Shown: one piece after another, positions 4,874-30,293 of the stretch
How positions within the stretch are numbered: the first letter of the stretch is position 1
How the letters are laid out: each line of letters begins with the position of its first letter
Assembly: GCA_002899795.1 (NCBI GenBank)
Contig: PPDG01000259.1
Location: 1-38,655, forward strand
From: Desulfobacteraceae bacterium
Lineage (GTDB): Bacteria; Desulfobacterota; Syntrophobacteria; BM002
Direction: 5' to 3'
Length of the DNA stretch: 38,655 nt
Notes under the pieces: generated by a model
Told to the model about the DNA's origin: nothing
Database searches by the model: none
The model's input: only the letters and a program-made list of their open reading frames with translations
Translations under genes and position numbers: made by a program

Positions 4874-5053
4874 TCAGTGGAGGTCGGTATCAAAATCATG
4901 ACTCACGCAATCCCATACACCATCAGGATCACACTCTTTACAATGGTAGTGCTCCGCATATATGAGGTGACTTTGGTAGGATACGGCTTCCTCTAAACGG
5001 ACCCGGGCTTCGCAATGGGCACAGTCAACATATCGAATGTTATCTTTATTCAT
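4874..5053 (-). CDS. hypothetical 59-aa CxxC...CxxC zinc-ribbon-like protein
   Basis: Internal ATG of the 131-aa track ORF, chosen because the upstream part overlaps the neighbouring gene. Sequence is MNKDNIRYVDCAHCEARV...HYHCKECDP. No clear SD. Confidence 0.35.
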   Translation of the reverse strand: MNKDNIRYVDCAHCEARVRLEEAVSYQSHLIYAEHYHCKECDPDGVWDCVSHDFDTDLH

Positions 5054-5084: not shown

Positions 5085-5315
5085 TCATTCTTTCGGTTCC
5101 TTAGGTTTGTGCATGGGCAGCCCATAAAGGGTATCAATGTAATATTCAAAATTCTCGGGACCTGCCTCTTCCACTTCTTTGCGGAATTTTTTGCAGATCT
5201 CCAATCCTTTCTCCTGGGCGCCTTCGGGAAAACCTTCCTCGTCGGACAAATACCGCTTCTCAATCTCATCTAATTTATTCATGAACTCTTCATAGGTGAT
5301 TTCCTCTATCGCCAT
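5085..5315 (-). CDS. hypothetical 76-aa acidic protein
   Basis: ORF with a GGGGG SD-like tract 5 nt upstream of the ATG. Co-directional and closely spaced with its neighbours. No family recognised. Confidence 0.45.
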   Translation of the reverse strand: MAIEEITYEEFMNKLDEIEKRYLSDEEGFPEGAQEKGLEICKKFRKEVEEAGPENFEYYIDTLYGLPMHKPKEPKE

Positions 5316-5351: not shown

Positions 5352-5543
5352 TTATTCAAATGTAACCTCGACTTCGCTGAGGGCTTTTCTGGCCTCGGCA
5401 ATCAAATCATAAAAAGCGTCCGATTGATAAGTATCGAAACCGCCGCATCCCATGTCACCGGCTTTGTCAAAAACATGCTCTTTATCAATGTAGGTTATCA
5501 GATCTCTTGCGGCCTCAAAGAGGGTCAAATACTCATCCTTCAT
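5352..5543 (-). CDS. hypothetical 63-aa protein
   Basis: Internal ATG at 5543 preceded by a strong GGAGGAGAGGAG SD. It overlaps the stop of the upstream MBL/TPR gene by 11 nt, which suggests translational coupling. Confidence 0.5.
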   Translation of the reverse strand: MKDEYLTLFEAARDLITYIDKEHVFDKAGDMGCGGFDTYQSDAFYDLIAEARKALSEVEVTFE

Positions 5544-6819
5544 TTGTCTCCTCTCCTCCGGGTGTCTTATCATCCTTCTTAGGTTCTTGTTCTTGTTTGT
5601 CAATCTCAGTCTTGAATCTTTCCATAAACTCCGTCTTGAAGGCTTCGATCTCCATAGCCTCGTCATATTTGCCCATAAAGTACAGGGCCATACCCTTGAA
5701 TACCTGGGCTTCCTTGATCTCAGGGTTTATGGCCAGAGCGTCATCGAAGTATTTTATACTCTCATCATATTTTTGCAGCCCCAACAAAGCGTGGCCTTTG
5801 GCTGCAAGGGCGTGAACATCATCGCCTTTCTGCGCCAGAATCTGATCCAAAATCTCAATAGCCTCTTCACACCTGCCCATGTCGTTCAGGGCAAAGGCCT
5901 TCAACTGTGAGGCTGATAAATTTTCCGGTCTGAGGGCCAGCTCCTTGTCGCAGCAATAAACAACCTCTTCCAAAAGCCCCTTTTCAGCCAATACCGCGGC
6001 TCCCTCCATCCAGGTTGTTTTGGAGTCCGGCTCGACCTCCATGAGCTTCATCATCACGCCCTCGTAGGTCTCCTCCACGCTGCGTCTGCCGGTGGCCGCC
6101 ACGGGAACACCGTGGCCGGGGAGTATATTTTCAATGTCTTTTTGCATCAATTGCTTGAGCCCGTACAAGTAATGCTCCAGCCTTCCTCCGGCGGTTTTGT
6201 CAGCATCCCCAATAGAGTGCGGTATTACAGTGTCCCCGGTAATGGCGGTTCTTGTTGGCCCGTGATACAAACATATGCCGTCAATGGTATGGCCGGGAGT
6301 GTGAATCACTTCCCATTCAAAGCCGCTCAGTTCAAGGGTTTCCCCGCCCTTTACTTGGGTCAGGGAGAATCCTTGACTTTCGAGTATTTTCTTAAACTCC
6401 TGGGGACCTCCTTCATGGTTGATAATCTCGATCTCTTTACTTTCATAGATGGGGGGGTATCTCAACAGTTCGAATACGCCCATGCAGTGGTCACGGTGCC
6501 CGTGAGTGACCACCACCTTTTTGATGTCCAGAGGATTGAACCCTAATTTTTCAAGCTCAGTAAAAACCGTATAATCATTTCCCGGATCGACGATGGTCAG
6601 GTAGTCACCTGCAAGCACATAGACATTGCTGGATTCTCCATAGCCGATAAGAAACTTGCTCTTTGCAAAGACAGGATCTGATATCTTCATAACCTCTGCG
6701 ATAGACAGCCAGCCCGGGTGATCCGGTTCTAACTCGGCCGGGAGGGCAACCCCCTCTTCAAGGGGATCAAACTCCTTTGGGAACTCAAACTTCTCACCTT
6801 CTTTCTTTTCCTTTGTCAT
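5533..6819 (-). CDS. MBL-fold metallo-hydrolase fused to C-terminal TPR repeats
   Basis: HxHxDH motif (VVTHGHRDHC), a downstream HTPGHT, and a C-terminal TPR-like region (ALNDMGRCEEAIEILDQIL..., KYDESIKYFDDALAINP..., MGKYDEAME). I chose ATG 6819 with AGGGAG 5 nt upstream over the track's GTG 6825. Confidence 0.8.
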   Translation of the reverse strand: MTKEKKEGEKFEFPKEFDPLEEGVALPAELEPDHPGWLSIAEVMKISDPVFAKSKFLIGYGESSNVYVLAGDYLTIVDPGNDYTVFTELEKLGFNPLDIKKVVVTHGHRDHCMGVFELLRYPPIYESKEIEIINHEGGPQEFKKILESQGFSLTQVKGGETLELSGFEWEVIHTPGHTIDGICLYHGPTRTAITGDTVIPHSIGDADKTAGGRLEHYLYGLKQLMQKDIENILPGHGVPVAATGRRSVEETYEGVMMKLMEVEPDSKTTWMEGAAVLAEKGLLEEVVYCCDKELALRPENLSASQLKAFALNDMGRCEEAIEILDQILAQKGDDVHALAAKGHALLGLQKYDESIKYFDDALAINPEIKEAQVFKGMALYFMGKYDEAMEIEAFKTEFMERFKTEIDKQEQEPKKDDKTPGGEETNEG

Positions 6820-6837
6820 GTTCACTCCCTTCGATTT

Positions 6838-7461: not shown

Positions 7462-7503
7462 AAAAAAACCCCCTCCCCTGGTAAACCATTGCAGGAGAGG
7501 GGG
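7462..7503 (-). terminator. intrinsic terminator of the CoA-transferase operon
   Basis: On the - strand: CCCCCTCTCCT-loop-AGGGGAGGGGG followed by TTTTTTT, about 135 nt downstream of the last gene of the operon. Additional GC hairpins lie at 7521-7546 and 7584-7611. Confidence 0.65.
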
Positions 7504-7636: not shown

Positions 7637-8059
7637 CTACTCGATGTAGTCCAGAGTGTAATCCAGCTTCATCTTGTCATCAGGCCACCAGTTCTTGCTC
7701 TGCACTTCTTTACCGGGGGCGACGTCTTTGCCGTCAATCTTCTCAAGATTCATCTCGAAGAACTTAAATGCCGTGACCTTGTATTTGGTGATAAAGTCAG
7801 ACGGCAGCAAGACGACCCGGCCGGTCTCCTTGGCACACTCCCACTCAAACGCTTCATTGGGAGCTGATTCTTCCGCACCGGTTATGCCGGAGTAGATCTT
7901 GAGCAGCTTGCCGGAGACCTTCATTCCCGGCTTCATGTCAAATTCCTCGAAAAGCGCGTCGGGTATGTGCCACCAACAGGCTCTCATGTTGGCGGCTGCA
8001 TATGCTTTTACGAGCATGGGATCGAAGCCGCAGACTCCCACTCGACATTTTTCAGGCAT
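7637..8059 (-). CDS. hypothetical 140-aa protein (operon gene 6)
   Basis: AAGGAGG SD 6 nt upstream of the ATG, which lies 12 nt after the previous stop. Four Cys and a WW/WWP-rich sequence. No family recognised. Confidence 0.6.
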   Translation of the reverse strand: MPEKCRVGVCGFDPMLVKAYAAANMRACWWHIPDALFEEFDMKPGMKVSGKLLKIYSGITGAEESAPNEAFEWECAKETGRVVLLPSDFITKYKVTAFKFFEMNLEKIDGKDVAPGKEVQSKNWWPDDKMKLDYTLDYIE

Positions 8060-8070
8060 ATTAAACCTCC

Positions 8071-8352
8071 TTATTCACTTTGATCGGTTTCCACTTGCCG
8101 CAACTGATCGCGAAGATCTTCAACCTGGCTGTGGCAGTAATCCATGAACTCTTGGGCCTCAGAATTGGTGAGGTGTTCCGTCTCACGCAATCTGGTGACA
8201 AGGGGGTAAACTTGCTCCTGGATCTCTTCGGTGAATTCCAGCAGCACATAATCGTTATCCCCGTCAGGCGAGGCCCAGCTAAGAAAACCCCTCTTCCAGT
8301 TGTTCAGCATCTGCTTGAGGGTATCGAGTTCTTGGCGGACGTTTTCTTCCAC
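8071..8352 (-). CDS. hypothetical 93-aa acidic helical protein (operon gene 5)
   Basis: GTG start 2 nt after the upstream TAG, with a purine-rich tract upstream. Strongly acidic, with predicted helical character by composition. Confidence 0.5.
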   Translation of the reverse strand: MEENVRQELDTLKQMLNNWKRGFLSWASPDGDNDYVLLEFTEEIQEQVYPLVTRLRETEHLTNSEAQEFMDYCHSQVEDLRDQLRQVETDQSE

Positions 8353-8354
8353 AG

Positions 8355-8588
8355 CTAGCCTTTCTTTCTCTGTTCAAAGGCATAGCACTTCTTGACCACG
8401 TTGAAATCCGCTACACACCAGTAATGGGGCCAGTGGATCTTCGTGCACCAACCAATGATGTCTGCCGGCGGAAACTTGGAGTCTTTGAGAACAGGCTTCA
8501 AGCCCCGGCAGTTCCAGCATATATGGTCACTCGACTTTTCCGGCACCAATACGGTATCCAGAAACTCTTCAGGTGTTAACTCTGCCAT
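8355..8588 (-). CDS. hypothetical 77-aa Cys/Trp-rich protein (operon gene 4)
   Basis: I chose the internal ATG 8588 with an AAGGAG SD 7 nt upstream. The track ORF start at 8663 would overlap the upstream gene. Motifs: CWNCRG, GWCTKIHWPHYWC, KKC. Confidence 0.55.
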   Translation of the reverse strand: MAELTPEEFLDTVLVPEKSSDHICWNCRGLKPVLKDSKFPPADIIGWCTKIHWPHYWCVADFNVVKKCYAFEQRKKG

Positions 8589-8607
8589 GTGACACTCCTT
8601 TCTACAG

Positions 8608-9093
8608 TTACCAGTCCTTGACTTCGCCGGCAGCGAGCTTCTGCTGATACTCCTCCCAGACATCGGGCGTCAATTTCTGAATATCCCAGTTGAAGCCAAA
8701 GCTTCCAGCCAAACCGGCAGAAGGCGGCTGCGGACGCCAGCCGCGCACCGGCCGACCCCGGATGCTGAACTTGACCATGTCGGCAACGCCAGTTAACCAA
8801 GACCTTGGCTTGCACTGGTAAGGCCTGGTCCTCCCCTCGATACCGTCTCTGTAGTTGGAATAGCCATCAAACGGCTTGTCCGCATAAAGCGGGCTGGTGT
8901 CCGGCTCCTCACCGGGTCTTTCCTCCGGACCCTTGAACATAAAGCCCTTGATCATGTGGATGTAGTACACCGTCTTGCACTCGGCGCAGTTGATCGTGCC
9001 TTCCCAGTCCCAGAAACAGTAAGGGTCGAGGTAGTTGATAGTGTCACAGTCTTTGCCACCAACCTCTTTTTTGCACCAGATTATATCACACAC
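8608..9093 (-). CDS. hypothetical 161-aa protein with an N-terminal Cys cluster (operon gene 3)
   Basis: GTG start with an AGGAGGG SD 7 nt upstream that overlaps the stop of the upstream gene. N-terminus is MCDIIWCKKEVGGKDCDT...CFWDWEGTINCAECKT. The C-terminal half is Trp/Arg/Pro-rich. Confidence 0.6.
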   Translation of the reverse strand: MCDIIWCKKEVGGKDCDTINYLDPYCFWDWEGTINCAECKTVYYIHMIKGFMFKGPEERPGEEPDTSPLYADKPFDGYSNYRDGIEGRTRPYQCKPRSWLTGVADMVKFSIRGRPVRGWRPQPPSAGLAGSFGFNWDIQKLTPDVWEEYQQKLAAGEVKDW

Positions 9094-9107
9094 AGTCGTC
9101 CCTCCTT

Positions 9108-10523
9108 TTAGATCCAGGCCTTGTCATACCACTCTTGGATTTGAGTGAGCGGAATGCCGAGCAGGTCACGGTAGATCTTCTTGTTGTCCGCACCAACCGG
9201 GCGCCAGTGCCAGTTAATCCTTCTCGGGGTTTTTTCCATCAACCCGCAGCTGTAACCGGCATGGAGCAGCATATCGCCAAAGAGGGGATCGTCCAGCCAC
9301 CTTACGGTGCCTCTCTCCCTGTAGTGCGGGCTCTCGTAAACCTCGCGGTCATTCCGAACAGGTTCGGCCAAAATGCCTGCATCTTGCAGGATCTTGGCAA
9401 CTTCCGACCTGGATTTGTCCGCAGCCCAGCTTTCCAGAGCCGCATAGATCTCCACCTGAGCTTCACCTTCAGCCCGGTCCTTGTGGGCCTTGTATTTGTC
9501 GAGAAGGCCCTTGTTCCCGGTTATGGCGCAGAGCTCTGCGAAGTCCTCATCCTGGAAGGCGCTGACCATGACATAACGCGCACAGAACTGGTCCTGCGGG
9601 TTGTCGGCATCCGGAAAATCGGACTTGCCGCACAGGATGATGCCGTGCGCCGCCAGTTGGGTGTCCCAGTTGCCCCAGCGCTGGCGGACGATGCCGAACT
9701 TGCCGTACATGGGCAAGGTATGTCCGAGCATCCGGGTCGGGACCTGTACCTGGGAGAATTCTATCATGGTGCCCAGTCCGGTCTTTCTCCGATGGTGGAT
9801 GGCCGCCAGGATTGAGCAGGTGATCAGGTTGCCGGATTGCCAGTCAATGACCCAGTTGGTGCACTTGGTGGCATGGCCGCCCATGAACTCGTGCATACCG
9901 GTTATGGAGGCGAGTCCGGCGTGGGCCTGGCCCAGGATGTCGTAAGAACCGCCGAAGATTTTGGGACCGTAACCGAAACCGCCGCCCCAGACATAGATGA
10001 ACCGGGGGTTGATTTCGCTCAGGTACCTGTAGCTCATCTTCCACTTGTCCAGGGTTCCCGGCCGGTAAAGCTCGGTCAGCCCGTCGGATTTCTTCACCAA
10101 CCCGTAAAAGATATCCACCATCTCGGGGATGTGGTAATCCATGGTGAGAAAGTACTTGTTGGGGTTGGCGTTGGTGAAACCCAGGCCGGTACCGGTCATG
10201 GGCCGCGTGTCATGCAGCGGATACAGGTAGCACTCGTTGAACGGGGATGTGTGGCGCATGGCGTCACCCATCCTCGGCATCTCGATCTTGATGACCTCGG
10301 CCCCCAGTTCGGCCAGGTTGGCCACAGAGTGGGGCGTGAAGATATACATGGTGCAGCTCAACCACCTAATCCCTTTAAGCGCTATGGGCTTGGTGTGCTC
10401 ATTGCCCACATCGAAGATCTTCTTGCAATACTCCTCGTAGGGCATCTTCATCTCATCCATTTCACCCTTGCTCTTGGGGCCTGGCAGGTCTTCTATTCGT
10501 GTTACTCTTGGATCTTTTGCCAT
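9108..10523 (-). CDS. family III (CaiB/BaiF/Frc-type) CoA-transferase, 471 aa, catalytic-type subunit
   Basis: N-terminal Rossmann signature [21 protein letters not shown]. Active-site region [28 protein letters not shown] retains the conserved Asp. AAGGGGG SD. Confidence 0.85.
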
Positions 10524-10591
10524 TAGATTACCCCCTTTGCCATGAGTTCATTAACCTTGATCTGAGTCATTCCGGTCCACTTCAGGAAGAT

Positions 10592-12007
10592 TTAGTAGTT
10601 GTCAAACCCTAGGTCTCTGCCCACCCACTTGGCCCGGAACGGCGCATAGAGCTGATAGGACGCCGGACTCGAAGCAATCAGCAGCGGACCGTAGTCGGTC
10701 TCATGGACGTACTGCCATGGACGGTACTTGAAGTGGGGGAACTCGGCGACCTCGTCGATGTACAGAAGCGGCCCGGCCGCAAGCTGGTAGGCCATCAGTT
10801 TTGTTTCGGCCTCGACCCTGTTGGTGTCCCTCAGCCAGCGGGTGGTAAGGGTGTAGGTCTTGATCAGGGCGTGCAAGGCGTTCCTGGCTCCCATCTCCTT
10901 GAGGAAGGGGTCTTCATGGATCAGCCGGCCGAACATGTCGTAATCGTTCTCAAGACAAAAGCCGATGTTGTACCAGAGCTTGTCGGTCTGGCCGCCGATC
11001 ATCATGTAGCCGTCCTTGCAGGGGTTCCAGGCATACTGGTTCAGGTTGGGGTCCCAGCCGCCGGATCTTCCTTTGATACTGGCATTGAAACCGTACCAGG
11101 TGATATCGAAGTCGATGATGTCCATCAAAGTTTCGGCACCGGTGACCTCGATCATCTGGCCGTCGTTCCCGAGCTCGTCGCGCCAGTAAAGGGCCGCACA
11201 GGCGTTCAGGAATCCCTGCGCCCCGGCAACATAGTCGGCCAGCCAGACACCCGAGCGGGTCGGATCGCCGCCCTTGCCCCTGGGAAGCAGGTCCTGGGCC
11301 AAACCGGTGTTGTGAACCCAGGAGTTGGCGCAACTGGCAAAGGGCTCCAGTTCCCACTGGCCGAACTTGGATTGCTTGTCCTTCCAGGGGCCCCACTGGC
11401 CAAGCATGCCGACCCAGATGTAGACCATCTTGGGGTTGGCTGCCTTGAGCTGGCGGTAGCCGATACCCAGACCATCCATATAGCCGGGAGGCATGCCGTC
11501 GATCAAAACATCGACGTTTTGAGCCATTTGCTTGAAAATCTCCTGGCCTTCCGGGGTCTCGACATCCAGGGTTACGCAGTGGGTGTTCACCGTCTCGCAG
11601 ACGAACTCCATGCCGCACTTTTCGCCGGTCTCGGTATTTTCCAGCAGGTACTCTTCGCGGCCGAAAGGCGTCAACTGCCTCAAAGGATCGCCACCGGGCG
11701 GTTCGACAGAGACGACCTCGGCCCCGGCTTCGCCAAAGAGAGAGGCGCAAAACTTGTGGCCCAGCCGCCAGAGGCCGATATCCAGTACCCTGAGGTGTCC
11801 CAGGGACTCATCTTTGCCGTATCTTTTTTCGAATTTGAAGCTGTCCTCAGCCCAGTCGCAGAACTCCAGCGCCTTCCTTTTTTCGTACGTCGGTTTCACT
11901 TCCTCGTAGGAAGGCGGCGGTGTGACCGGGTAGGGCCTTACATCCAAATCCATCAGACCTATGGTGTCGGCCCTGCTGTTTATTTCAACATCTTTTTTTT
12001 CTGCCAT
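10592..12007 (-). CDS. family III CoA-transferase-like protein, 471 aa, divergent paralogue
   Basis: [40 protein letters not shown] matches the family III N-terminal signature. The segment equivalent to the Asp loop reads [33 protein letters not shown], with Glu rather than Asp by eye. GGAGG SD. Confidence 0.8.
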
Positions 12008-12726
12008 GTTTTAACCTCCGATTCAGCAGTTTTATCTCCAGACTTGCTGTACACTCCTTGTTGGCGTTAGAGGTTAGTCCGATAATCCCTCATCGCTTTA
12101 ACTCACCACCCCCTTTCTCACTGCGATCTGGTTAGAGCTTGTAGTTAGAACCTCCGCCCCAGTGGTTTGCCTCTCATGGGGCTTCACGGTTGATTGATCC
12201 TTCCTAGTTCGTCTGCTCTACCAGCCGGCAAGTCGTTTTCACCACCTGGTCCGGTGGCAATTGACTGGTCTTTTATCACCCCCTTTACAATGTTGAAGAA
12301 ATGGCACAAGTGTCAGAATGCAGAATACGACTGTGCCCCCTCAAAGACCACGTCGTTGGCATTAGCCATTGGGCTGAGAGAAGACAGATGCTCTACTTGG
12401 ATTAGGTACCGTCGTTTCGTATTCGGCTACTTTGGTGGAAATATGCGCTGGCCTGCTTGCCAGATATAGAAACTGTATGCTCGCAGAGTGTCGATGCTCT
12501 GAAGCAACAGATTACTCTCGGAGTTGTCTTTGTATCTGACCGTGTTAGCTGATTCCGCTGGAACTCGAACTCCAGGTACCGCTAGAAATATAGGACGCGA
12601 GTTCGCTACTCGAGCTAGCTCTATTTGCTATTCTGGTTTAACAGGTGCGCTTCTGCGAAGGATTGAGAAGCTTGCGATTGTAGAAAACATGAAGAAAACA
12701 GCATTAAGCAACTGAATTTGTTTCTA

Positions 12727-12754: not shown

Positions 12755-12856
12755 GCCAAAAGATAGCTCGTGATTTTTTTCTCTAAGCCGGGTCATGTTT
12801 AAAGCTCCCCAAATGGTCCGCTGGAAGGGGGGAGCGGTTTTCAATGCTTGGTTGTT

Positions 12857-12929
12857 CGCGGCTGGAAAGCCGCTCCCACAGAACCAACATCTATCCTCTT
12901 TAAACTGTGGGAGTGGCTTTCCAGCCACG
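12857..12929. repeat. REP doublet (BIME-like), GTGG type
   Basis: 12857-12881 is CGCGGCTGGAAAGCCGCTCCCACAG and 12905-12929 is CTGTGGGAGTGGCTTTCCAGCCACG. They lie head to head with a 23-nt spacer. The two arms differ by a compensatory stem change (GCGGCT/AGCCGC versus GTGGCT/AGCCAC). Confidence 0.85.
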
Positions 12930-13073
12930 ACAAAGTTAATGGTATCTGGTCACTCTCTAATTGGTTTTCCATTACCAGTTCTTCGAGGTTCCCCGCCATG
13001 CGAGCAAGGCGAGGCGGGCGGGGAAAGCCGCTCTCACTAACAAGCCTCCATCCCGAAAACTGACTTTTTCCGT

Positions 13074-13172: not shown

Positions 13173-13409
13173 ATTCAACAGTTTCCGGATGGACATTAAG
13201 CTATACCGCTTCTTGACAATGCTCTGAAAGGTGTGCCAACATCCGTGAGAGAAACAGCTGGCAGCCAGTGTCCATCCGACGGGAGTCAGCTGGAGTCATC
13301 ACATTTCGGATTGGAGATTTCGGATTTCGGATTGAAAATATAGAAACGAAGCTCAAAAACTATATAAGAATTCCGCAATCCGCATTCCGCATTCGAGAGG
13401 AGGCGCATC

Positions 13410-13826: not shown

Positions 13827-13857
13827 CTAGGCACTGTTAAGTCATTAGGCTACGAGT

Positions 13858-14446
13858 CGCGGCTGGAAAGCCGCTCCCACAGACAACATGACGATGTAAT
13901 ATGACCTGTGGGAGCGGCTTTCCAGCCGCGATCCCAAAATACCAATGGTTATGGAACACAGAAAAGGAACGCACCATCTGCGTAAAGGTCGCGTTTCCGA
14001 AATAGGCCATTACTATTTACTCACAGCGACCACTCACGACAAAATTCCTGTATTTACCAACCCCGAAGCTGCAAGAATAGTTCTTTCCAGTTTGCAGTCG
14101 CTTGAAGAGCAGGGACGGATTTGTCTTGAAGCTGCGGTAGTCATGCCTGATCATCTTCATTTCGTGGCTGGGTTATCTGATGGAAATTTGAGTGTGCTAA
14201 TGCAGAGTCTAAAAGGCTATAGTGCTCGCAAAATAAACGAGTTGCTCGGCCGGAAAGGACCACTGTGGCAGCCTCAATATCACGACCATGCGATAAGAAA
14301 GGATGAGGTTCTTGAGGAAGTTACTCTTTATTGCTTGCACAATCCAGTGAGAGCTGGTTTAGTTCAGGATTTCCGTGACTATCCCTATTGGTATTGCCGT
14401 TGGGAAGTGTGAAGATTGTATCGCGGCTGGAAAGCCGCTCCCACAG
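13858..14446 (+). mobile_element. REPtron: RAYT gene flanked by cognate REPs
   Basis: A REP doublet at 13858-13930 (both arms GCGGCT type, 23-nt spacer) lies upstream, and a single REP at 14422-14446 lies 10 nt after the RAYT stop. Confidence 0.8.
13945..14412 (+). CDS. REP-associated tyrosine transposase (RAYT, IS200/IS605 Y1 HUH family)
   Basis: 155 aa. HUH motif in VVMPDHLHFV and a catalytic Tyr region YCLHNPVRAGLV. Flanked by REPs. Confidence 0.85.
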   Translation: MVMEHRKGTHHLRKGRVSEIGHYYLLTATTHDKIPVFTNPEAARIVLSSLQSLEEQGRICLEAAVVMPDHLHFVAGLSDGNLSVLMQSLKGYSARKINELLGRKGPLWQPQYHDHAIRKDEVLEEVTLYCLHNPVRAGLVQDFRDYPYWYCRWEV

Positions 14447-20643: not shown

Positions 20644-22509
20644 GTGGGGACATTCCGGCTGGCTCTCGTTTCAATGCCATGGCCTCTGGCCAATCGCCCC
20701 TCCATACAATTAGCCACCCTCAAGAGTTTCCTCAGAGAAAAGGCACCAGAGGTAGAGACCGATTGCTATCATCCTTACCTCCAGGTCGGCAATCTCCTGG
20801 GAATTCAGGCTTATAACAATATTGCCGAGCGAACCTGGATGGCGGAGGCTATTTACGGTTATCTCTTGAATCCGAAGAAAAGGGTTGAGATTCTGGATCT
20901 GGTTCGCAAAGAACATGCTTCCAGAACCAAAACGTCTCCCCCGGACCTAAAAACTATATCCAGCCAAATTCATCGTTTGCACCAAGGTCACCATTTCGAC
21001 CTGGAATGGTCGTCCTACGATCTCGTCGGCTTTTCCATCTGCCTTTCGCAATTGACCTCGTCACTCTATATGTTCAGGCAGATTCGCGCCCGCCACCCTA
21101 GTTGCCGTATCGTGGTTGGTGGTTCCAGTTGTGCTGGTGAGTTGGGCTACTCCTTGCTCGCCAACCTACCCGAGATCGATTTCGTGGTGAGCGGCGAGGG
21201 TGAGCTGCCGCTGCTGGAGTTAATCAACCGGATCAAAAAGGATGAGCTGGAAGGTGATGAGTCTTCTGGACTACTGTGGCGGGATGCACAGGGGAGCATC
21301 AGAGGGGGAGAATTCAATCAACTGCCGGATCTCAATGATCTCCCGGTACCGGAATACCGTGACTACTTTGATGAATTGAGCCGACAGCCCCGCCTGGCCA
21401 CTTTGGTGCCCAGCCTGCCTCTGGAAACCTCCCGGGGATGCTGGTGGCATCGAGTCAAGACGGGTTCGGTGGAGCGAGCCTGCAAATTCTGCAACCTGAA
21501 TCTCCAGTGGCGGGGTTACCGGAGCAAAGAGCCGCACCAGGTAGCACGGGAGATGGAGGAACTGGCTGCACAGTACGCCAGCCTCAAGTTCTTTTTTGTT
21601 GATAACATCCTCGACAACAACAAGCTCCATGAGCTTTTCAAATGCATCAATGATGCAGGGCGTGATTTTGAGATTTTCACTGAACTCAGGGCACCGGTAT
21701 CGCGTTCCGACCTCATCCAAATGCGAAGAACTGGGGTCACCCAGGTACAGGTTGGCATTGAAGCACTGAGCACCAGGCTCTTGCGAAAAATCAACAAAGG
21801 GACCACGGCTATCCAGAATATCGAGATCATGAAACATTGCGAAGAGCTGGGTATCCAGCATTTGTCCAACCTTATGCTCGGATTTCCTGGAAGTGATGCC
21901 GAGGATGTGGCGGAGACCCTCCATAATCTAAGGTTTGTCATGCCATTTCAGCCCCTGCGCAAGGTGCGCTTCTGGCTGGGCCAGAACAGCCCGGTTGCCC
22001 TTCACCCAAAAGAGTATGGCATCCGGCGCATCACCAATCACCCGCATTATCACAGTTTGCTCCCGGATTCCCTGGCGAACTCTCTCTGCTTGATGGTCAA
22101 GACCTACGTGGGTGATCGGACCAGGCAAAAGAAACTTTGGCGCCCCGTAGCCCGCGAGATTGAACGTTGGCAGCAGCGCTATACATCACTGCGCCGACAA
22201 CATCTCCAGACACCCTTACTGAGCTATCGGGACGGAGGGGATTTTCTCCTGATTCGCCGGCGCGCCGAGGGTTCTGAGATGGAGACCTTTCGCCTGCGGG
22301 GATCCTCCCGCGCCATTTACCGCTTTTGCGAAACACGTCGAACCTTAGAAGAAATCCGCAGGGAATTTCCTCGTTTCTCCTCGGACAAGCTTCAGACCTT
22401 CATTTCACATATGGTTGGCAAACTTCTCATGTTTCAGGAGGGAAGGCAAGTCCTCAGCCTGGCGGTCAGCGAGGAACCACACAAGATTCTGTGTAATGAG
22501 AAAACCTAA
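20644..22509 (+). CDS. B12-binding-domain radical SAM enzyme, RiPP-maturation C-methyltransferase-like
   Basis: 621 aa with a GTG start. N-terminus FRLALVSMPWPLANRPSIQLATLKSFL, B12-domain-like VGFSICLSQ...IVVGGSSC, and an Fe-S motif ETSRGCWWHRVKTGSVERACKFCNLN. The C-terminal ~90 aa look PqqD/RRE-like (AIYRFCETRRTLEEIRREF...FISHMVGKLLMFQEG). Confidence 0.75.
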   Translation: MGTFRLALVSMPWPLANRPSIQLATLKSFLREKAPEVETDCYHPYLQVGNLLGIQAYNNIAERTWMAEAIYGYLLNPKKRVEILDLVRKEHASRTKTSPPDLKTISSQIHRLHQGHHFDLEWSSYDLVGFSICLSQLTSSLYMFRQIRARHPSCRIVVGGSSCAGELGYSLLANLPEIDFVVSGEGELPLLELINRIKKDELEGDESSGLLWRDAQGSIRGGEFNQLPDLNDLPVPEYRDYFDELSRQPRLATLVPSLPLETSRGCWWHRVKTGSVERACKFCNLNLQWRGYRSKEPHQVAREMEELAAQYASLKFFFVDNILDNNKLHELFKCINDAGRDFEIFTELRAPVSRSDLIQMRRTGVTQVQVGIEALSTRLLRKINKGTTAIQNIEIMKHCEELGIQHLSNLMLGFPGSDAEDVAETLHNLRFVMPFQPLRKVRFWLGQNSPVALHPKEYGIRRITNHPHYHSLLPDSLANSLCLMVKTYVGDRTRQKKLWRPVAREIERWQQRYTSLRRQHLQTPLLSYRDGGDFLLIRRRAEGSEMETFRLRGSSRAIYRFCETRRTLEEIRREFPRFSSDKLQTFISHMVGKLLMFQEGRQVLSLAVSEEPHKILCNEKT

Positions 22510-22511
22510 AT

Positions 22512-22584
22512 CGCGGCTAAAAGCCGCTCCCACAGAAAGGAAATTGTATACAGTCAAAACTGTGGGAGTGGCTTTCCAGCCACG
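22512..22584. repeat. REP doublet directly after the radical SAM stop codon
   Basis: 22512-22535 is CGCGGCTAAAAGCCGCTCCCACAG (AAAA loop variant) and 22560-22584 is CTGTGGGAGTGGCTTTCCAGCCACG, with a 24-nt spacer. Confidence 0.85.
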
Positions 22585-22712
22585 ATATTACCGAGGGAAC
22601 ACAACAACTATTCGGCGTGGCGATCTGGGGAAGTAATTGCTAGGAACGAGACACCAAGAACCTTTATCATTTCGCAATTCACATTGCGCATTTCGCATTT
22701 CACTTGTAGGAT

Positions 22713-22811
22713 TTTTAGTTCATTTTAGACACTTTAGGCACTTTAGTCATTTTAGCTCACTTTAGTTCACTTTAGTTCATTTTAGACACTTTAGACACTT
22801 TAGACACTTTG
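22713..22811 (+). repeat. tandem array of ten 9-10-nt CAYTTTAG units abutting the livH start codon
   Basis: TTCATTTTAG ACACTTTAG GCACTTTAG TCATTTTAG CTCACTTTAG TTCACTTTAG TTCATTTTAG ACACTTTAG ACACTTTAG ACACTTTG. It ends 5 nt before ATG 22817. Confidence 0.85.
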
Positions 22812-22816
22812 ATCTA

Positions 22817-23698
22817 ATGATCTGGAATCAACTCCCACAGTTTTTGGTCTCAGGCATTACCAGTGGCAGTATTTATGCTCTTATTGCCTTGGGCTTTGGC
22901 ATCATCCATAACGCCACCGGCATCGTTAACTTCGCCCAAGGCGAGTTCGTTATGCTGGGGGCAATGACCATGATCAGCTTCACTCGAGGTGTGGGAATGC
23001 CCGTATTTGTGGCATTTCCTCTGGCAGTACTGGTTGTGATGGGAGTGGGCTGGCTCATGGAAATTGGGCCTATGCGGAGAGCGCGATCGAACAATATTCT
23101 CATCCTGGTAATGATCACCGTGGGTGCATCTATCACCATGCGGGAAGTGGCCATGTTGATCTGGGGCAAGACTCCGCGTATCCTGCCGCCTTTTTCCGGA
23201 GATGATCCTTTTGTTTGGGGCCATGCTGCTATCTTACCGCAGACCCTTTGGATTCTCGCAATCATGCTTCTGGTGGTTGTTTTACTCGGCTTCTTTTTCA
23301 GCAAGACCATGGTAGGGAAAGCCATGAGGGCAGCAGCTGAAAACCGCAGGGGTGCTGCTCTCATTGGTATTGCCGTCCATCGCATGACAATGCTTGCCTT
23401 TGTTTTAAGTGGTGGCATTGGCGCGGTGGCCGGCATCATTATTACCCCAATTACCACAATGTCATACAGCGCTGGGGTTATGCTGGCCTTAAAAGGATTC
23501 TCCGCGGCAATATTAGGTGGGTACGGCAGCATGAAGGGGGCAATCGTCGGCGGCTTGCTCCTTGGCACCCTGGAATCCTTTGGCGCCGGCTTTGTTTCCT
23601 CGTCTTACAAGGATGCCTTTGCTTTCCTCGTGCTGCTACTGGTCCTCTTTGTCAGGCCTACAGGGTTGTTCGGGAAAGAAGAGATCAAGAGAGTATAG
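22817..23698 (+). CDS. livH: branched-chain amino acid ABC transporter permease LivH
   Basis: 293 aa, polytopic. The N-terminus FLVSGITSGSIYALIALGFGII is typical of LivH. It is the first gene of a livHMGF block. Confidence 0.9.
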   Translation: MIWNQLPQFLVSGITSGSIYALIALGFGIIHNATGIVNFAQGEFVMLGAMTMISFTRGVGMPVFVAFPLAVLVVMGVGWLMEIGPMRRARSNNILILVMITVGASITMREVAMLIWGKTPRILPPFSGDDPFVWGHAAILPQTLWILAIMLLVVVLLGFFFSKTMVGKAMRAAAENRRGAALIGIAVHRMTMLAFVLSGGIGAVAGIIITPITTMSYSAGVMLALKGFSAAILGGYGSMKGAIVGGLLLGTLESFGAGFVSSSYKDAFAFLVLLLVLFVRPTGLFGKEEIKRV

Positions 23699-23785
23699 AA
23701 AAACATTGCGGATTTCGGATTTCGGATTGCGGATTTGAGAAGGCATAGGGCATGGGGAACAGCATTTAGCATTGGCTTTAAAAAG

Positions 23786-23860
23786 TTGTGGGAGTGGCTT
23801 TCCAGCCACGACTCCATTGCTGGTCCGACGGCTTATCGCGGCTAAAAGCCGCTCCCACAA
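23786..23860. repeat. REP doublet, tail-to-tail arrangement
   Basis: 23786-23810 is TTGTGGGAGTGGCTTTCCAGCCACG and 23837-23860 is CGCGGCTAAAAGCCGCTCCCACAA, with a 26-nt spacer. It lies between livH and livM. Confidence 0.85.
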
Positions 23861-23883
23861 ACTAATGACCACAGAAACTATTG

Positions 23884-24849
23884 ATGAGTAAAACCCGCAA
23901 AAAATGGATCTCTTTTTGCGCTCTGGCCTCGGTGGTAGCCCTTCTTCCCCTGGTGGTCAAAGGGAGTTACTACCTTCTGGTACTTAATATTATCGCCATC
24001 AACGGACTCATAGTCCTGGGGTTGAACCTGTTAATCGGTTTTGCCGGTCAAATCTCGTTAGGCCATGCAGCGTTTTTCGGCATGGGAGCGTACTTGTCAG
24101 CCATCCTTACCTCCATGTACAACACGCCGCCCTGGCCGACTCTCGTTCTGGTAATGGTCTTTACTGGTGTGGTTGCTTATGTGCTGGGTGTACCAACTCT
24201 TCGGCTTGCTGGTCACTACCTGGTTATGGCAACCCTGGGCTTCAACATTATCCTTTACATCCTGATGGTCCAGATGGAACATTGGACTGGCGGACCATCC
24301 GGCTTTGCTGAAATTCCTCCTCTCCACCTGGGATCCGTCCCCATCCAGGGTGACTTTCACTTCTACTGGTTGATTTGGCCGCTTTTTCTCATCATTTTCA
24401 TTTTTTCTCTTAATCTGGTTGATTCACGCGTGGGCCGTGCTCTGCGTGCGATTCATGAAAATGAACTTGTCGCCAATGCCATGGGGGTGAACACTGAGAG
24501 GTATAAAGTCATCATTTTTGCGATCAGTGCTGCCTATGCCTCTTTGGCTGGAAGCCTTTATGCGCATTACCTTTCGTTTATCAGTCCCAAGACCTTCGAC
24601 ATTTTTTATTCTATTCAGATCGTAACCATGGTGGTGGTGGGCGGCATTGGGAATCTATGGGGAGGCTTATTGGGAGCGGCGGTGCTTACAGCTTTGCCGG
24701 AAGTGCTTCATGCCATGCGTGATTATGCTCTCCTGTTCTACGGCGTGATTCTGATGGGAGTGTTGGTGTTTTTCCCGGAGGGTTTGCTACCGGGGCTGGT
24801 AAGGATCTGGTCTCGGAAGAAAGGTGCAAAAGCCGTGGCATCAGAGTAA
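23884..24849 (+). CDS. livM: branched-chain amino acid ABC transporter permease LivM
   Basis: About 321 aa, polytopic. Contains GQISLGHAAFFGMGAY, typical of LivM. I used the ATG one codon after the track's TTG start. Confidence 0.9.
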   Translation: MSKTRKKWISFCALASVVALLPLVVKGSYYLLVLNIIAINGLIVLGLNLLIGFAGQISLGHAAFFGMGAYLSAILTSMYNTPPWPTLVLVMVFTGVVAYVLGVPTLRLAGHYLVMATLGFNIILYILMVQMEHWTGGPSGFAEIPPLHLGSVPIQGDFHFYWLIWPLFLIIFIFSLNLVDSRVGRALRAIHENELVANAMGVNTERYKVIIFAISAAYASLAGSLYAHYLSFISPKTFDIFYSIQIVTMVVVGGIGNLWGGLLGAAVLTALPEVLHAMRDYALLFYGVILMGVLVFFPEGLLPGLVRIWSRKKGAKAVASE

Positions 24850-25076
24850 AGAATCCAGGCTTAGGGAAAGTGACTTTGCTTTGCCTCTGAAAAGGACTAC
24901 AAAACTACCGGATCAAGTTTCCCCGGTTAGCGCTCTGCATTCAACTATCTACGATAAAGTCTTTGAGAATATGAACCGCAGAACCGCAGAACAAGGAACC
25001 GCAGAATGTCGAAGTGAAAAACATTGTCTTATTCGTTTCAAAAACTTCTGCTGTTCGAAATTCCTTGTTCGATATT

Positions 25077-25119
25077 GTCCTTCGGACTCCCCACCCTGCG
25101 GGCGGGTCCCCAGTTTCGA
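25077..25119 (-). repeat. twin-hairpin element, copy b (family E)
   Basis: + strand reads GTCCTTCGGACTCCCCACCCTGCGGGCGGGTCCCCAGTTTCGA. It lies between livM and livG, oriented opposite to the operon. Confidence 0.7.
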
Positions 25120-25140
25120 TATCAAAATACAAAAGAAGCC

Positions 25141-25926
25141 ATGAAAACAAACGGCACATTATTACAGATCCAGGATGTGAACAAGCAATTCGACGGCCTG
25201 CTGGCAATTGCAGGGGTCTCATTCGCTGTAAACTCCGGAGAAATTGTATCCCTCATTGGCCCAAACGGCGCAGGTAAAACCACACTTTTCAACTTGATTT
25301 CAGGGGTTTACCCACCAACCAGTGGACAGATTCTGCTGAGTGGCGAGAACATCACTGGCATGAAGCCATACCAGATAGCCACCAAGAGAATCGCCCGAAC
25401 TTTTCAGTCAGTCCAAATATTTCAGGAGATGACCGTACTGGAAAATGTGTTATTGGGGCTACACCACCGGTTGAGCAGCGGTTTTGTCAAAGGTATGCTA
25501 CACTTACCCGGAGAACGGCGAGAGGAGCAGAGTGCTGGCACTCAGGCCAGAGAAACGCTGGAGCAGTTAGGCATCGAGCAATTGGCGGAAAGAAAAGCTG
25601 ACAGCATTAGCCTGAAAGAGCAAAGGTGTCTGGAAATTGCTCGTTCTGTAGTGTCCAAACCTCGTTTGCTGCTTTTGGACGAACCAGCCGCTGGTCTCAA
25701 TATCCGAGAAACCGAGGAAATGGGCGATATTATTCAAGGCTTAGGGCAATACGGTCTGACCATTCTTCTGGTAGAGCATGACATGAACCTGGTAATGAGC
25801 ATAGCGCATAGAGTCGTGGTTTTGCACCACGGTATGATGATCGCCGAAGGGTTACCCGAGGAGATTCAAAGAAACCCGGAGGTAATCCGGGCGTATTTGG
25901 GAGGGACGCATAGCGCAGAGCGCTAA
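25141..25926 (+). CDS. livG: branched-chain amino acid ABC transporter ATP-binding protein LivG
   Basis: I chose ATG 25141 because the track's upstream extension translates a repeat. Walker A GPNGAGKTT, signature-region LKEQRCLEIARS, Walker B LLLLDEPAAG and a LivG-type C-terminus EVIRAYLG. Confidence 0.9.
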   Translation: MKTNGTLLQIQDVNKQFDGLLAIAGVSFAVNSGEIVSLIGPNGAGKTTLFNLISGVYPPTSGQILLSGENITGMKPYQIATKRIARTFQSVQIFQEMTVLENVLLGLHHRLSSGFVKGMLHLPGERREEQSAGTQARETLEQLGIEQLAERKADSISLKEQRCLEIARSVVSKPRLLLLDEPAAGLNIRETEEMGDIIQGLGQYGLTILLVEHDMNLVMSIAHRVVVLHHGMMIAEGLPEEIQRNPEVIRAYLGGTHSAER

Positions 25927-26077
25927 GCGCAGAGCGTCCGCATCATTTCAAGTCAGAACCTGTTTTTTATTGGTCTTTGGTTGATGTATTGATGCTGAAA
26001 AATTTCTTTTTAGAATTATTTGTCAGTCCTATGTCCTACGCTATGCGCCATGCGCTATGCGCTTTGCGAGTTTCTTG

Positions 26078-26815
26078 ATGCTTCGTGTAAAAAATGTATC
26101 GGCCTTTTACGGCAATATACAAGTTCTGCGCCGGGTGACCTTTCATGTCAAACAGGGAGAGGTAGTGTCGCTTATTGGCGGCAATGGAGCCGGCAAGAGC
26201 ACGTTGCTCAACGTAATCAGCGGCATTCACCCAGCCAGTTCCGGCACCATCGCCTTCGAGCGTCAGGAAATTCAGAAACTGGAACCTAATAAGATGGTTC
26301 GTCTTGGCTTGCTGCAAGTGCCAGAGCAGAGGCAAATCTTCAACTCCATGACTGTCACCGAGAACCTCGAATTGGGATCTTACTGTCTGCCCAGGAAAGA
26401 GCAGAAACGTATGGCCAGCTCCCAACTCCAAGAGATATACACCCTTTTCCCCATCCTGGAAGAGCGAGCCCGGCAGAGGGCAGGCACTTTGAGTGGCGGC
26501 GAGCAGCAGATGTTATCCATCGCCAGGGCCCTCATGGCACGACCCAGAATGCTTCTCCTTGACGAACCTTCGTTGGGATTGGCACCATTAGTGGCGGAGG
26601 AGATTTTTCGTGTGACCCAGGAACTCCGGGACAATGGGACCACTATACTTTTGGTGGAACAGAACGCCTTGGCTGCCCTGGAGGTCTGCGATCGCGGTTA
26701 CGTCCTGGAGGCTGGCCGCATTGTTCTTGAGGGGAGTCCTGAGGACCTTCTGGAAGATGATGAAGTGCAGCGGGCATTCTTAGGACGGGATTACAAGGAA
26801 AAATGGGAAAGATAG
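26078..26815 (+). CDS. livF: branched-chain amino acid ABC transporter ATP-binding protein LivF
   Basis: I chose ATG 26078 (MLRVKNVSAFYG). Walker A GGNGAGKST, LSGGEQQML, Walker B MLLLDEPSLGLAP. No SD, because a CTATGCGC stutter array abuts the start. Confidence 0.9.
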   Translation: MLRVKNVSAFYGNIQVLRRVTFHVKQGEVVSLIGGNGAGKSTLLNVISGIHPASSGTIAFERQEIQKLEPNKMVRLGLLQVPEQRQIFNSMTVTENLELGSYCLPRKEQKRMASSQLQEIYTLFPILEERARQRAGTLSGGEQQMLSIARALMARPRMLLLDEPSLGLAPLVAEEIFRVTQELRDNGTTILLVEQNALAALEVCDRGYVLEAGRIVLEGSPEDLLEDDEVQRAFLGRDYKEKWER

Positions 26816-26824
26816 ATTGTCTTA

Positions 26825-27008
26825 TGGTCAGTACACTGTGCTGTCACTCATGGTCATTAAGCCACTAAAGTGGCTGTCACTAGGCCTGGCGGCCGTCAGT
26901 TGGGCTGCGCCCGTCATTAGGCCTTATGGCCGTCATTGAGTCATTATGTCTTAACAATAAATGACCATTAATGACAGCGAGGCGTAATGACGGCTTTAGC
27001 CAAATGAC
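26825..27008. repeat. TAATGAC-mosaic palindromic repeat (family C) between livF and the first PaaK-like gene
   Basis: ...CTGTCACTCATGGTCATTAAGCCACTAAAGTGGCTGTCACTAGGCC...GGGCTGCGCCCGTCATTAGGCCTTATGGCCGTCATTGAGTCATTATGTCTTAACAATAAATGACCATTAATGACAGCGAGGCGTAATGACGGC... Confidence 0.85.
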
Positions 27009-27047
27009 ATTCTGAGGTATTGAGACAAAAGGAGGCCGAGACAAGGA

Positions 27048-28337: not shown

Positions 28338-28397
28338 GCAATGCTGCATGGTTGTAGATCCTATTGCCTACACTAGCTCAATCCCCAAATCCGAAAT

Positions 28398-28613
28398 TCG
28401 AAACTGGGAACCCACCCGAAGGGTGGGAGTCCGAAGGACAATATCGAATATCGAAACAGTTTTCAAATTTTCAAAATTCAAATGACCAAAACCAAATATC
28501 TTCAGTATTATTCAACTTGTTTTGAACATTCGAGCATTGAGTAATTCGGATTAGTTTCGAGATTCGTGCTTCGAAACTGGGGCCCCGCCCGAAGGGTGGG
28601 GAGTCCGCAGGAC
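28398..28613 (+). repeat. two twin-hairpin elements, copies c and d (family E), with TTCGAAAT-type stutters
   Basis: 28398-28439 contains CCCACC-CGAAG-GGTGGG plus GTCC-GAA-GGAC. 28571-28613 contains CCCCGCC-CGAAG-GGTGGGG plus GTCC-GCA-GGAC. A G.T pair in one copy is A-T in the other. Confidence 0.75.
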
Positions 28614-28694
28614 AATTTCGAATTTAATACTTCATGTCATTCTTTGGTGAGCACCATTTGTAACACCTAATTTCGCTATTCTGGAGACGGACCG

Positions 28695-29984: not shown

Positions 29985-30293
29985 ACTTGGCAATTCACAT
30001 TTGTCATTTCACATTTGTTATTTTTAGTGTATTTATCTCTTAGCTCCCAGATATCATCATCGACGGATAGAGACTCTATCCTGGGATTTCAACAAAATAA
30101 ACATTCACCTTTCAGCATTGATCTGACCAACAAGTTAGACCAGCAGTCCCAAATTTTTAGATAAGTCAAACCTAGACTTAGCAATGAAAAATGCGAAATG
30201 TGAACTGAGAAATTACCAGGGGAGGTGATACTGAACTGACTAGGGATGTGTACTTATAATTCTATAATACTATCCAAAAAGGGAGGTTGTAGT

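Follow-up and report, generated by a model that had tools for sequence, protein, structure and literature searches.

A widespread gene module joining two family III CoA-transferase paralogues to small zinc-ribbon-type proteins in bacteria and archaea

Why should two family III CoA-transferase paralogues be followed, on the same strand and at close spacing, by four small proteins that belong to no named family? The question is raised by a contig of a Desulfobacteraceae bacterium (GenBank assembly GCA_002899795.1, contig PPDG01000259.1), of which positions 1 to 38,655 of the forward strand were analysed; this whole stretch of 38,655 nucleotides is called the window here, and the six genes are called A to F in their order of transcription. 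Our preferred reading, which we hold to be rather probable, is that of a family III CoA-transferase that is inducible, has several subunits and belongs to a subtype not described before. What is new is a widespread CoA-transferase module with zinc partners that belong to no family; the CoA-transferase fold itself was already known. A full-text literature search found no description of this gene set.

A first-pass annotation, made from the letters of the window, had placed six co-directional genes on the minus strand, and both the genes and their coordinates were borne out (Table 1). In a codon-position test against eight relatives, changes at position 3 dominated in all six genes (changes at positions 1/2/3: B 344/186/1215, C 135/102/506, D 53/55/205). 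Constraint was weakest in E and about equal in A and B. The six minus-strand open reading frames (ORFs) are real genes under purifying selection, and the long plus-strand ORFs across the same DNA are antisense artefacts. Spacings from A to F are 68, 14, 19, 2 and 11 nucleotides. Purine-rich, Shine-Dalgarno (SD)-like boxes precede each start, as had been annotated; for A to F they read GGAGG, AAGGGGG, AGGAGGG, AAGGAG, GAAAGG and AAGGAGG, the one before E being weak. Direct reading of the minus strand downstream of F also upheld the strong terminator: from 7503 to 7462 it consists of CCCCCTCTCCTG, an 11-nucleotide loop, CAGGGGAGGGGG and seven T, with a 12-bp G+C stem. An automatic terminator scan had overlooked it because its loop exceeds the 8-nucleotide limit of that scan.

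Table 1. Features of the module and its surroundings in the window, with the basis of each assignment.
Feature	Positions	Strand	Description	Basis
Gene A	10592-12007	-	family III CoA-transferase paralogue, 471 amino acids (aa) here	PF02515
Gene B	9108-10523	-	family III CoA-transferase subunit, 471 aa, Asp loop	PF02515
Gene C	8608-9093	-	zinc-ribbon-type protein, 161 aa	alignment, model
Gene D	8355-8588	-	Cys/Trp-rich putative zinc-binding protein, 77 aa	alignment
Gene E	8071-8352	-	93 aa, one invariant Cys	alignment, codon test
Gene F	7637-8059	-	140 aa, CRVGVCGFDP N-terminus, predicted swapped-hairpin beta-barrel	alignments, AlphaFold2 model
Terminator 3' of F	7462-7503	-	intrinsic	read from sequence
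Premature TAA and intact 23-codon ancestral tail of A	10523-10594	-		comparison with locus L002 (GAA); C-terminal alignment of 55+ orthologues
5' leader of A	12069-12113	-	SD-like GGGGGTG at 12107-12113 (position -106), anti-SD-like CCTCT at 12069-12073	
MBL+TPR gene	5533-6825	-	metallo-beta-lactamase (MBL)-fold hydrolase with TPR repeats, 430 aa	Pfam Lactamase_B and TPR
Small ORF of family c14	5352-5543	-	63 aa, after MBL gene, conserved in about 20 loci	
Small ORF of family c13	5085-5315	-	76 aa, after MBL gene, conserved in about 20 loci	

The distribution of the genes speaks for a functional unit. Relatives of C, sought in one genome per species, occur in 252 species-level genomes, and across the 80 best loci, which were analysed, the order A-B-C-D-E-F is kept nearly without exception. 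Carriers belong to Syntrophobacteria, Desulfobacterales, 'Desulfatibia', Nitrospinota, Archaeoglobus and Thermoplasmata, some genomes holding two to three copies, and the module is 57-70% identical between Desulfobacterota and archaea. Among them are the cultured Desulfacinum infernum DSM 9756, D. hydrothermale DSM 13146, Desulfosoma caldarium and Desulfoferrobacter suflitae DRH4. In all carriers the small proteins are annotated as 'hypothetical'. At 90% identity, a single cluster of C comprises about 1000 sequences, and one of B about 900, from sediments, peat and groundwater. The module is widespread and abundant in anoxic habitats, conserved across domains and carried by cultured, sequenced hosts; its four small proteins have neither a family nor solved relatives. 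Taken together, such features usually point to a gap in what is known of core anaerobic carbon metabolism.

Where the order is broken, the breakpoints are telling. In Archaeoglobus, A-B-C-D lie on one strand, and E and F lie on the other together with the gene of an MBL-fold hydrolase with TPR repeats (MBL+TPR, Table 1). In Thermoplasmata the set is split into A-B and C-D-E-F-MBL. Rearrangements cut it solely into the blocks A-B, C-D and E-F-MBL. Distant C-like proteins of 130-140 amino acids furthermore led to 436 metagenome hits and to a second, distant branch, whose counterparts we denote A' to D'. In the 80 distant loci examined, C' comes after an A'-B' pair wherever the sequence suffices. 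D' (55-65 amino acids) follows in 63 of the 80 and shares with D the pattern CxxC...GxCxKxxWP...C (hhalign E-value 9e-4). E, F and the MBL gene are absent from this branch, and a 123-amino-acid protein (MKVEFYYDS... family) stands in their place; it is unrelated to C, D, E and F and has no Pfam hit. In three distant loci (L099, L102, L110) it is fused in frame to D', which suggests that these small proteins act together physically. Since the distant branch keeps just A', B', C' and D', the ancient core is the transferase pair plus two zinc-ribbon proteins, and E, F and MBL+TPR are a second, lineage-restricted accessory set. The earlier view of a CoA-transferase-centred multi-protein unit fits these data. 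In bacteria and archaea alike, the small ORFs have homologues that keep strict synteny with the two transferase genes. Its boundaries had to be redrawn, however: the unit is not one of six genes, because MBL+TPR belongs with E and F and the distant branch keeps A to D only.

What kind of proteins are the two small members of the core? The cysteine patterns already given for C, D and F were correct. C carries C2, C7, C16, C26, C36 and C39 in its N-terminal part (Trp 5.0%), and D has the motifs CWNC, WC, WC and KKC (Trp 5.2%). In the family alignment of C the set C7/C16/C36/C39 is invariant and forms two knuckles, CxxC or, here, a widened Cx8C, and then CxxC, with an invariant NYLDPxxFWNW between them; C94 and the C-terminus ...GEVxDW are invariant too. 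D keeps H22, C24, C27, C48 and C68. C members give sub-threshold zinc-ribbon matches (zf-ChsH2 in 5 of 26, best E-value 0.017), and weak PknG rubredoxin matches were obtained in 10 of 17 members of D. As far as their sequences tell, C and D are small zinc-ribbon-type proteins whose cysteine sets look like structural zinc ribbons, so that the label 'metal-binding-looking' holds for these two. It was likewise right that the small ORFs are of no recognisable family: profile searches of C to F returned no Pfam, NCBIfam or PADLOC family, DUF35 included, and profiles of C and F against PDB sequences gave nothing meaningful. The 119 homologues of C are without exception annotated as 'hypothetical', and the family is small and isolated: in a set of 1.84 billion proteins, 51 representatives reach E <= 1e-3. 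An AlphaFold2 (AF2) model of C has a mean predicted local distance difference test (pLDDT) score of 81 and is confident over residues 1-90. It found no neighbour in a fold search against the PDB (best E-value 1.6); SCP2-like fragments in that search were scattered, all at E > 1, and were not trusted.

A small zinc-ribbon partner of a CoA-ester enzyme has parallels in the DUF35/ChsH2 proteins, such as BbsA or the scaffold of archaeal thiolase and HMG-CoA synthase. In contrast to these, C has a CoA-transferase and not a thiolase as partner, no thiolase occurs in the conserved neighbourhood, and a Pfam search of 26 C members did not detect the DUF35 OB-fold. D-like domains also occur fused elsewhere (P0123-P0128), with an N-terminal domain of about 210 amino acids, a C-terminal extension or a Lys/Pro/Ala-rich N-terminal tail. 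Two of these proteins, P0124 and P0128, were tried as a Rosetta-stone link and rejected, as their N-domains are unrelated to E or F.

The transferase pair itself is firmly placed in family III. Pfam PF02515 (CoA_transf_3) matches B at 230.1 and A at 193.3 bits, against a gathering cut-off of 23.3 and over nearly the whole profile. The family identity that had been read from an N-terminal signature in both products thus stands; the motif itself differs from [IV]K[IV] in A. Both chains carry conserved N-terminal extensions, about 65 amino acids in A and about 45 in B, ahead of the region that aligns with solved family III enzymes. The loop SYDILGQA of B aligns with YDFVVQA of formyl-CoA transferase (PDB 10uh) and is unchanged in 70 B orthologues and 58 distant B' proteins. 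B hence keeps the canonical Asp loop, as was noted before, and judging from this invariance it is the chain that holds the obligate active site.

Does the pair then simply belong to a described pathway? Its best PDB sequence matches are formyl-CoA transferase and both chains of BbsEF (succinyl-CoA:(R)-benzylsuccinate CoA-transferase, PDB 9fn0). In the ORM2 'Magic' benzene cluster, too, genes for a hypothetical protein and an AMP-binding protein come after a pair of type III CoA-transferases. On these grounds the locus could be an ordinary member of a BbsEF-type aryl- or alkylsuccinate, an Frc/YfdE oxalate, an FldA/HadA 2-hydroxyacid dehydratase or an ORM2-like pathway. We regard this as very unlikely. 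None of the NCBIfam equivalogs (Frc, YfdE, CaiB, mesaconate, succinate-glutarate, Mct) reaches its curated cut-off with A or B; the scores stay four- to eightfold below, with 130.8 against 442 and 130.7 against 700 bits as the top values for B and 93.3 against 700 for A. Genes for bss/ass, other bbs functions, oxalyl-CoA decarboxylase or 2-hydroxyacyl-CoA dehydratase are found in 0 of about 170 loci. The hypothetical proteins of ORM2 are described as poorly annotated with weak PaaZ-domain homology, and their neighbours are MaoC-family dehydratases and GlcDEF-like flavoproteins, which the module lacks. We also compared the acetone/ketone cluster of Desulfococcus and Desulfosarcina and the ORM2/BzS1 benzene clusters as candidates and rejected them, since their gene content differs. 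A role in anti-phage defence was rejected as well: PADLOC gave no hit for A to F and a weak, generic MBL hit only.

Comparison with the closest characterised enzymes sharpens this picture. Frc/YfdW and YfdE are the best sequence matches of B and have the same Asp loop. Frc and YfdW are homodimers, however, B scores 122-131 bits against their NCBIfam cut-offs of 442-504, and no oxalyl-CoA decarboxylase is encoded near the module. BbsEF is likewise made of two paralogous family III subunits with adjacent genes, with non-equivalent loops: in 9fn0, chain B reads YGVNLNA instead of YD...QA, and chain A keeps GSDL. By analogy, BbsEF shows that one chain of a heteromer may lack the Asp. The module chain that resembles the Asp-less Bbs chain is B, the one with the invariant Asp, from which it follows that the asymmetry arose independently. 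Unlike the BbsEF locus, the module has no bss or bbs genes nearby, its A and B carry the N-terminal extensions, and the similarity to BbsEF is remote (E-values 1e-15 to 1e-23). BbsEF is not known to have extra subunits. By these scores the pair falls outside the characterised heteromers.

Gene A requires more care. The first-pass annotation had stressed that A and B are both exactly 471 amino acids long; this is an artefact of the window. Codon 472 of A is TAA (10592-10594), where near-identical contigs have GAA and encode a 494-amino-acid product. The reading frame stays open over the following 23 codons, up to a TAATG in which the ATG of B overlaps the ancestral stop of A. C is identical on 19 metagenome contigs, on which A is called at 494 amino acids and abuts B. 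In every other locus A orthologues have 494-505 amino acids and a common C-terminal helix (...EIYLKWTGM.Q..VNE.K.KGVI). A single nonsense change in A thus accounts for the equal lengths, the 68-nucleotide gap and its SD-like box as by-products, and this gap and box are, by comparison with these orthologues, ancestral coding sequence. The TAA may be a very recent truncating or inactivating allele, or an error of assembly or sequencing in a contig from a metagenome-assembled genome.

The active-site loop of A varies between lineages. In the window it reads WELEPFASC, with Glu220 where the canonical Asp stands. Asp occupies this position in Archaeoglobus and Desulfosoma (LDPIAQC), Glu in the majority of Desulfobacterota, the window among them, and Ala in four loci. 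In the distant branch the A' loop is canonical, [MLY]DP[VT][AG]Q, in all listed variants but one, which has Glu; the Glu220 of A hence occupies the position of the canonical Asp. By this comparison A represents a second, ancestrally canonical site that has since drifted. A had been suspected to be either non-catalytic or Glu-using. The second wording is apt, as the Glu replaces the Asp of the deep branch, and the loop is not simply degenerate.

How might such an enzyme work? A and B would form the interlocked heterodimer typical of the family, like BbsE and BbsF. B would run the ping-pong reaction through an Asp anhydride and an Asp-CoA thioester, and the site of A would be a second, more dispensable one. 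C and D could be obligate structural zinc subunits that dock on the N-terminal extensions of A and B and help to shape the substrate site or to control access to it. That a family III enzyme can belong to a larger complex is known from the phenyllactate dehydratase FldABC, in which the CoA-transferase FldA is complexed with FldBC. The partners of FldA, in contrast, are [4Fe-4S] 2-hydroxyacyl-CoA dehydratase subunits and an ATP-dependent activator, and no such genes occur at the module. If our reading is true, this would be the first case in family III of a CoA-transferase that requires zinc proteins as subunits, and the second active site would offer a natural Asp/Glu/Ala series.

For the substrate, the neighbouring genes give a hint. 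An AMP-forming ligase adjoins the cluster in both branches, in 20 and 23 loci, respectively, and also in L007, L092, L093 and L175 and in archaeal loci. It is closest to anthranilate- and benzoate-CoA ligases (E-values 9e-70 and 3e-65) and stays below the cut-off of the benzoate-CoA ligase family. One locus has a fusion of this ligase with a GNAT domain, and one sub-clade has a separate GNAT gene. U32 genes, one to three per locus, recur in 14 and 9 loci of the two branches and in Archaeoglobus and Thermoplasmata; their nearest models are TrhP and UbiU. The ligase could prime the CoA pool, with CoA then being recycled by transfer, and the substrate would be an organic and possibly aromatic acid of common occurrence in anoxic sediments. 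The earlier suggestion of aromatic acid metabolism thus gains indirect, weak support from the benzoate/anthranilate-type ligase and the U32 neighbours. The adjoining 4HBT thioesterase, which had been named in its favour, could not be kept as a functional neighbour: it adjoins the operon in about 12 of 80 loci, all close relatives, and is a matter of local synteny outside the module. The HcyBio gene beside the operon of the window is likewise shared by close relatives only.

The same ligase can be turned into an argument for a different chemistry, since it already forms a thioester and a second CoA-activating enzyme would be partly redundant. The module might thus use the CoA-transferase fold for something other than simple intermolecular transfer, be it an isomerisation or intramolecular transfer as in mesaconyl-CoA transferase, a racemase or lyase reaction as in MCR and DddD, or new C-C or C-heteroatom chemistry. 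The zinc proteins would then join in catalysis, and the B site and the Asp/Glu site of A would run different half-reactions. The superfamily indeed holds racemases, isomerases and a lyase, and MCR and Mct are among the PDB matches. The extensions on A and B are long and highly conserved, and the two chains are about equally constrained; the canonical Asp kept in A' means that two different active sites are ancestral; and four to five additional conserved proteins are unusual for a mere transferase. Against this, the loop of B is a canonical transferase loop and its best match is formyl-CoA transferase, C to F show no catalytic motif that could be named, and the cysteine sets of C and D resemble structural zinc ribbons. 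We give this alternative a minor, though real, share of probability.

Several observations weigh against our reading of a multi-subunit CoA-transferase, which we nevertheless prefer. An Asp-to-Glu swap inactivates formyl-CoA transferase, and the site of A may hence be inactive instead of Glu-using. A is truncated in the window, so that this copy may be impaired or carry a sequencing error. No fold beyond the ribbon is recognisable in C, and the term 'structural subunit' is therefore argued from co-occurrence. Of the accessory set, E is missing in some loci and the MBL gene is not adjacent in one sub-clade; in the window the strong terminator and 811 nucleotides separate the MBL gene from F. 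Finally, a search of the regions upstream of A in about 65 loci brought up no consistent sigma-54 -24/-12 element, although activators are encoded close by.

We may go one step further and speculate that A-B-C-D represent an unrecognised class of CoA-thioester enzyme, a two-site heterodimer with zinc-ribbon subunits that handle the substrate, which would act with the benzoate-type ligase and the U32 proteins (of the O2-independent hydroxylase type) in an undescribed anaerobic acid route. As a whole this proposal is tentative and rather improbable. If true, it would provide a route for an abundant, possibly aromatic acid common to sulfate reducers, syntrophs and archaea. More speculatively still, the C-terminal carboxylate of the invariant ...GEVxDW of C might reach into the active site, either to plug it or to serve as a protein-borne acceptor.

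In the accessory set, E, read as helical from its sequence, has a single invariant Cys in its alignment, C73, and is absent from the loci L074-76, L081 and L069. F has cysteines at C5, C10, C28 and C75, of which C10 is invariant and C5 near-invariant, F of Archaeoglobus lacking it; the N-terminal CRVGVCGFDP is conserved, and a search found 409 homologues of F. We found nothing that points to a redox-dependent complex, as had been considered earlier: E has one invariant Cys, and F has one plus the near-invariant C5. An inter-subunit four-Cys site of C94 of C, C73 of E and C5/C10 of F was tried and rejected, because C94 is kept in loci without E and Archaeoglobus F is without C5. The AF2 model of F (pLDDT 89, predicted template modelling score 0.83) resembles a swapped-hairpin beta-barrel like that of PhS018. 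The match, PDB 2glw, was the only convincing neighbour in Foldseek (probability 1.00, TM-score 0.65 by target and 0.46 by query, root-mean-square deviation 3.5 Å over 106 columns, E-value 0.048). F shows no sequence similarity to PhS018 and is extended by a Cys-bearing strand at its N-terminus and by a tail at its C-terminus. To our knowledge, PhS018 is without known function.

By its predicted fold F would fall among the AbrB/MazE-type DNA binders, and zinc ribbons are often nucleic-acid binders. It could thus be argued that C to F are independent proteins that merely share an operon, F being an AbrB-like regulator and C and D nucleic-acid-binding ribbons, chaperones or assembly factors; that the distant branch lacks E and F and some loci lack E would agree with this. 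We consider it unlikely, however. C and D are conserved to the same degree as the two transferases, C being 58-88% identical from bacteria to archaea with a codon pattern like that of B, and both always come directly after B at short spacing. The C family was met in this context only, in 160 loci, and dedicated sigma-54 or IclR regulators are already encoded alongside.

Also in this accessory set, the MBL+TPR gene follows F in most main-clade loci, in Archaeoglobus, Thermoplasmata and others, and is met together with E and F; its copy in the window forms a transcription unit of its own. Its MBL domain (PF00753, 91 bits) has the metal motif THGHRDH (THxHxDH) of the glyoxalase II/LACTB2 thiolesterases, and its nearest solved structures are LACTB2 and hydroxyacylglutathione hydrolases. 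In contrast to glyoxalase II, the domain is fused to a C-terminal TPR array, and it scores 53.2 bits against the GloB equivalog cut-off of 200.8. In a multi-subunit CoA-transferase the glyoxalase II-like domain could hydrolyse thioesters for product release or proofreading, and the TPR repeats, together with E and F, might tether it to the complex. The c14 and c13 ORFs behind it (Table 1) are possible further members of the module. After these, a 59-amino-acid zinc-ribbon ORF (CAHC...CKEC; 4874-5053, minus strand) has homologues in six related loci and may, by its sequence, be another small zinc protein of the module.

In the Desulfobacterales sub-clade of loci L074, L080 and L081, which has no adjacent MBL gene, a CooS-like Prismane/CO-dehydrogenase (680 amino acids), a GNAT acetyltransferase and a double-PAS sigma-54 activator are encoded directly upstream of A. 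Still further downstream, L081 has ORFs whose first residues resemble those of HdrA- and MetF-type proteins.

Expression of the module would be controlled by adjacent regulators, as PAS-sigma-54 activators lie upstream in at least 29 loci and IclR regulators in others, and perhaps by an SD/anti-SD leader. Of 61 loci, 58 carry a perfect SD-like box (GAAAGGAGGTG; GGGGGTG in the window) 100-200 nucleotides upstream of the A start, the background frequency being 0.16 per kb. CCTCT often follows about 40 nucleotides after the box, and no start codon stands at a fixed distance from it; the window has a second leader box at 12277-12283 (minus strand). RNAalifold found GGAGG/CCUCU as the sole consensus pairing of the leaders, with no covariation. 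The box looks like a STAB-SD-type stabiliser or an SD-decoy/anti-SD switch, as judged from its letters and position. A riboswitch in the A leader was considered and rejected, since no Rfam family matches the window or the leader.

Between the thioesterase gene and the operon, the 1.4-kb leader region holds two copies of a palindromic REP-like element of about 75 nucleotides (12856-12930 and 13857-13931), with 26-nucleotide arms that are 92-100% complementary and a 23-nucleotide loop. An IS200-like Y1 transposase ORF (13945-14412, plus strand; PF01797, E-value 3e-9) starts immediately downstream of the second copy, and the two form a REP/RAYT-type pair. Tandem short repeats of the CGGATTT/CCGAAAT type occupy 13291-13400, just upstream of the thioesterase start. 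Further away on the plus strand, 20644-31493 encodes a B12-binding radical SAM protein, a branched-chain-type ABC transporter (two permeases, ATPase and binding protein) and two 429-amino-acid AMP-binding proteins with AMP-binding_C_2; it may be a separate cluster for acid uptake and activation.

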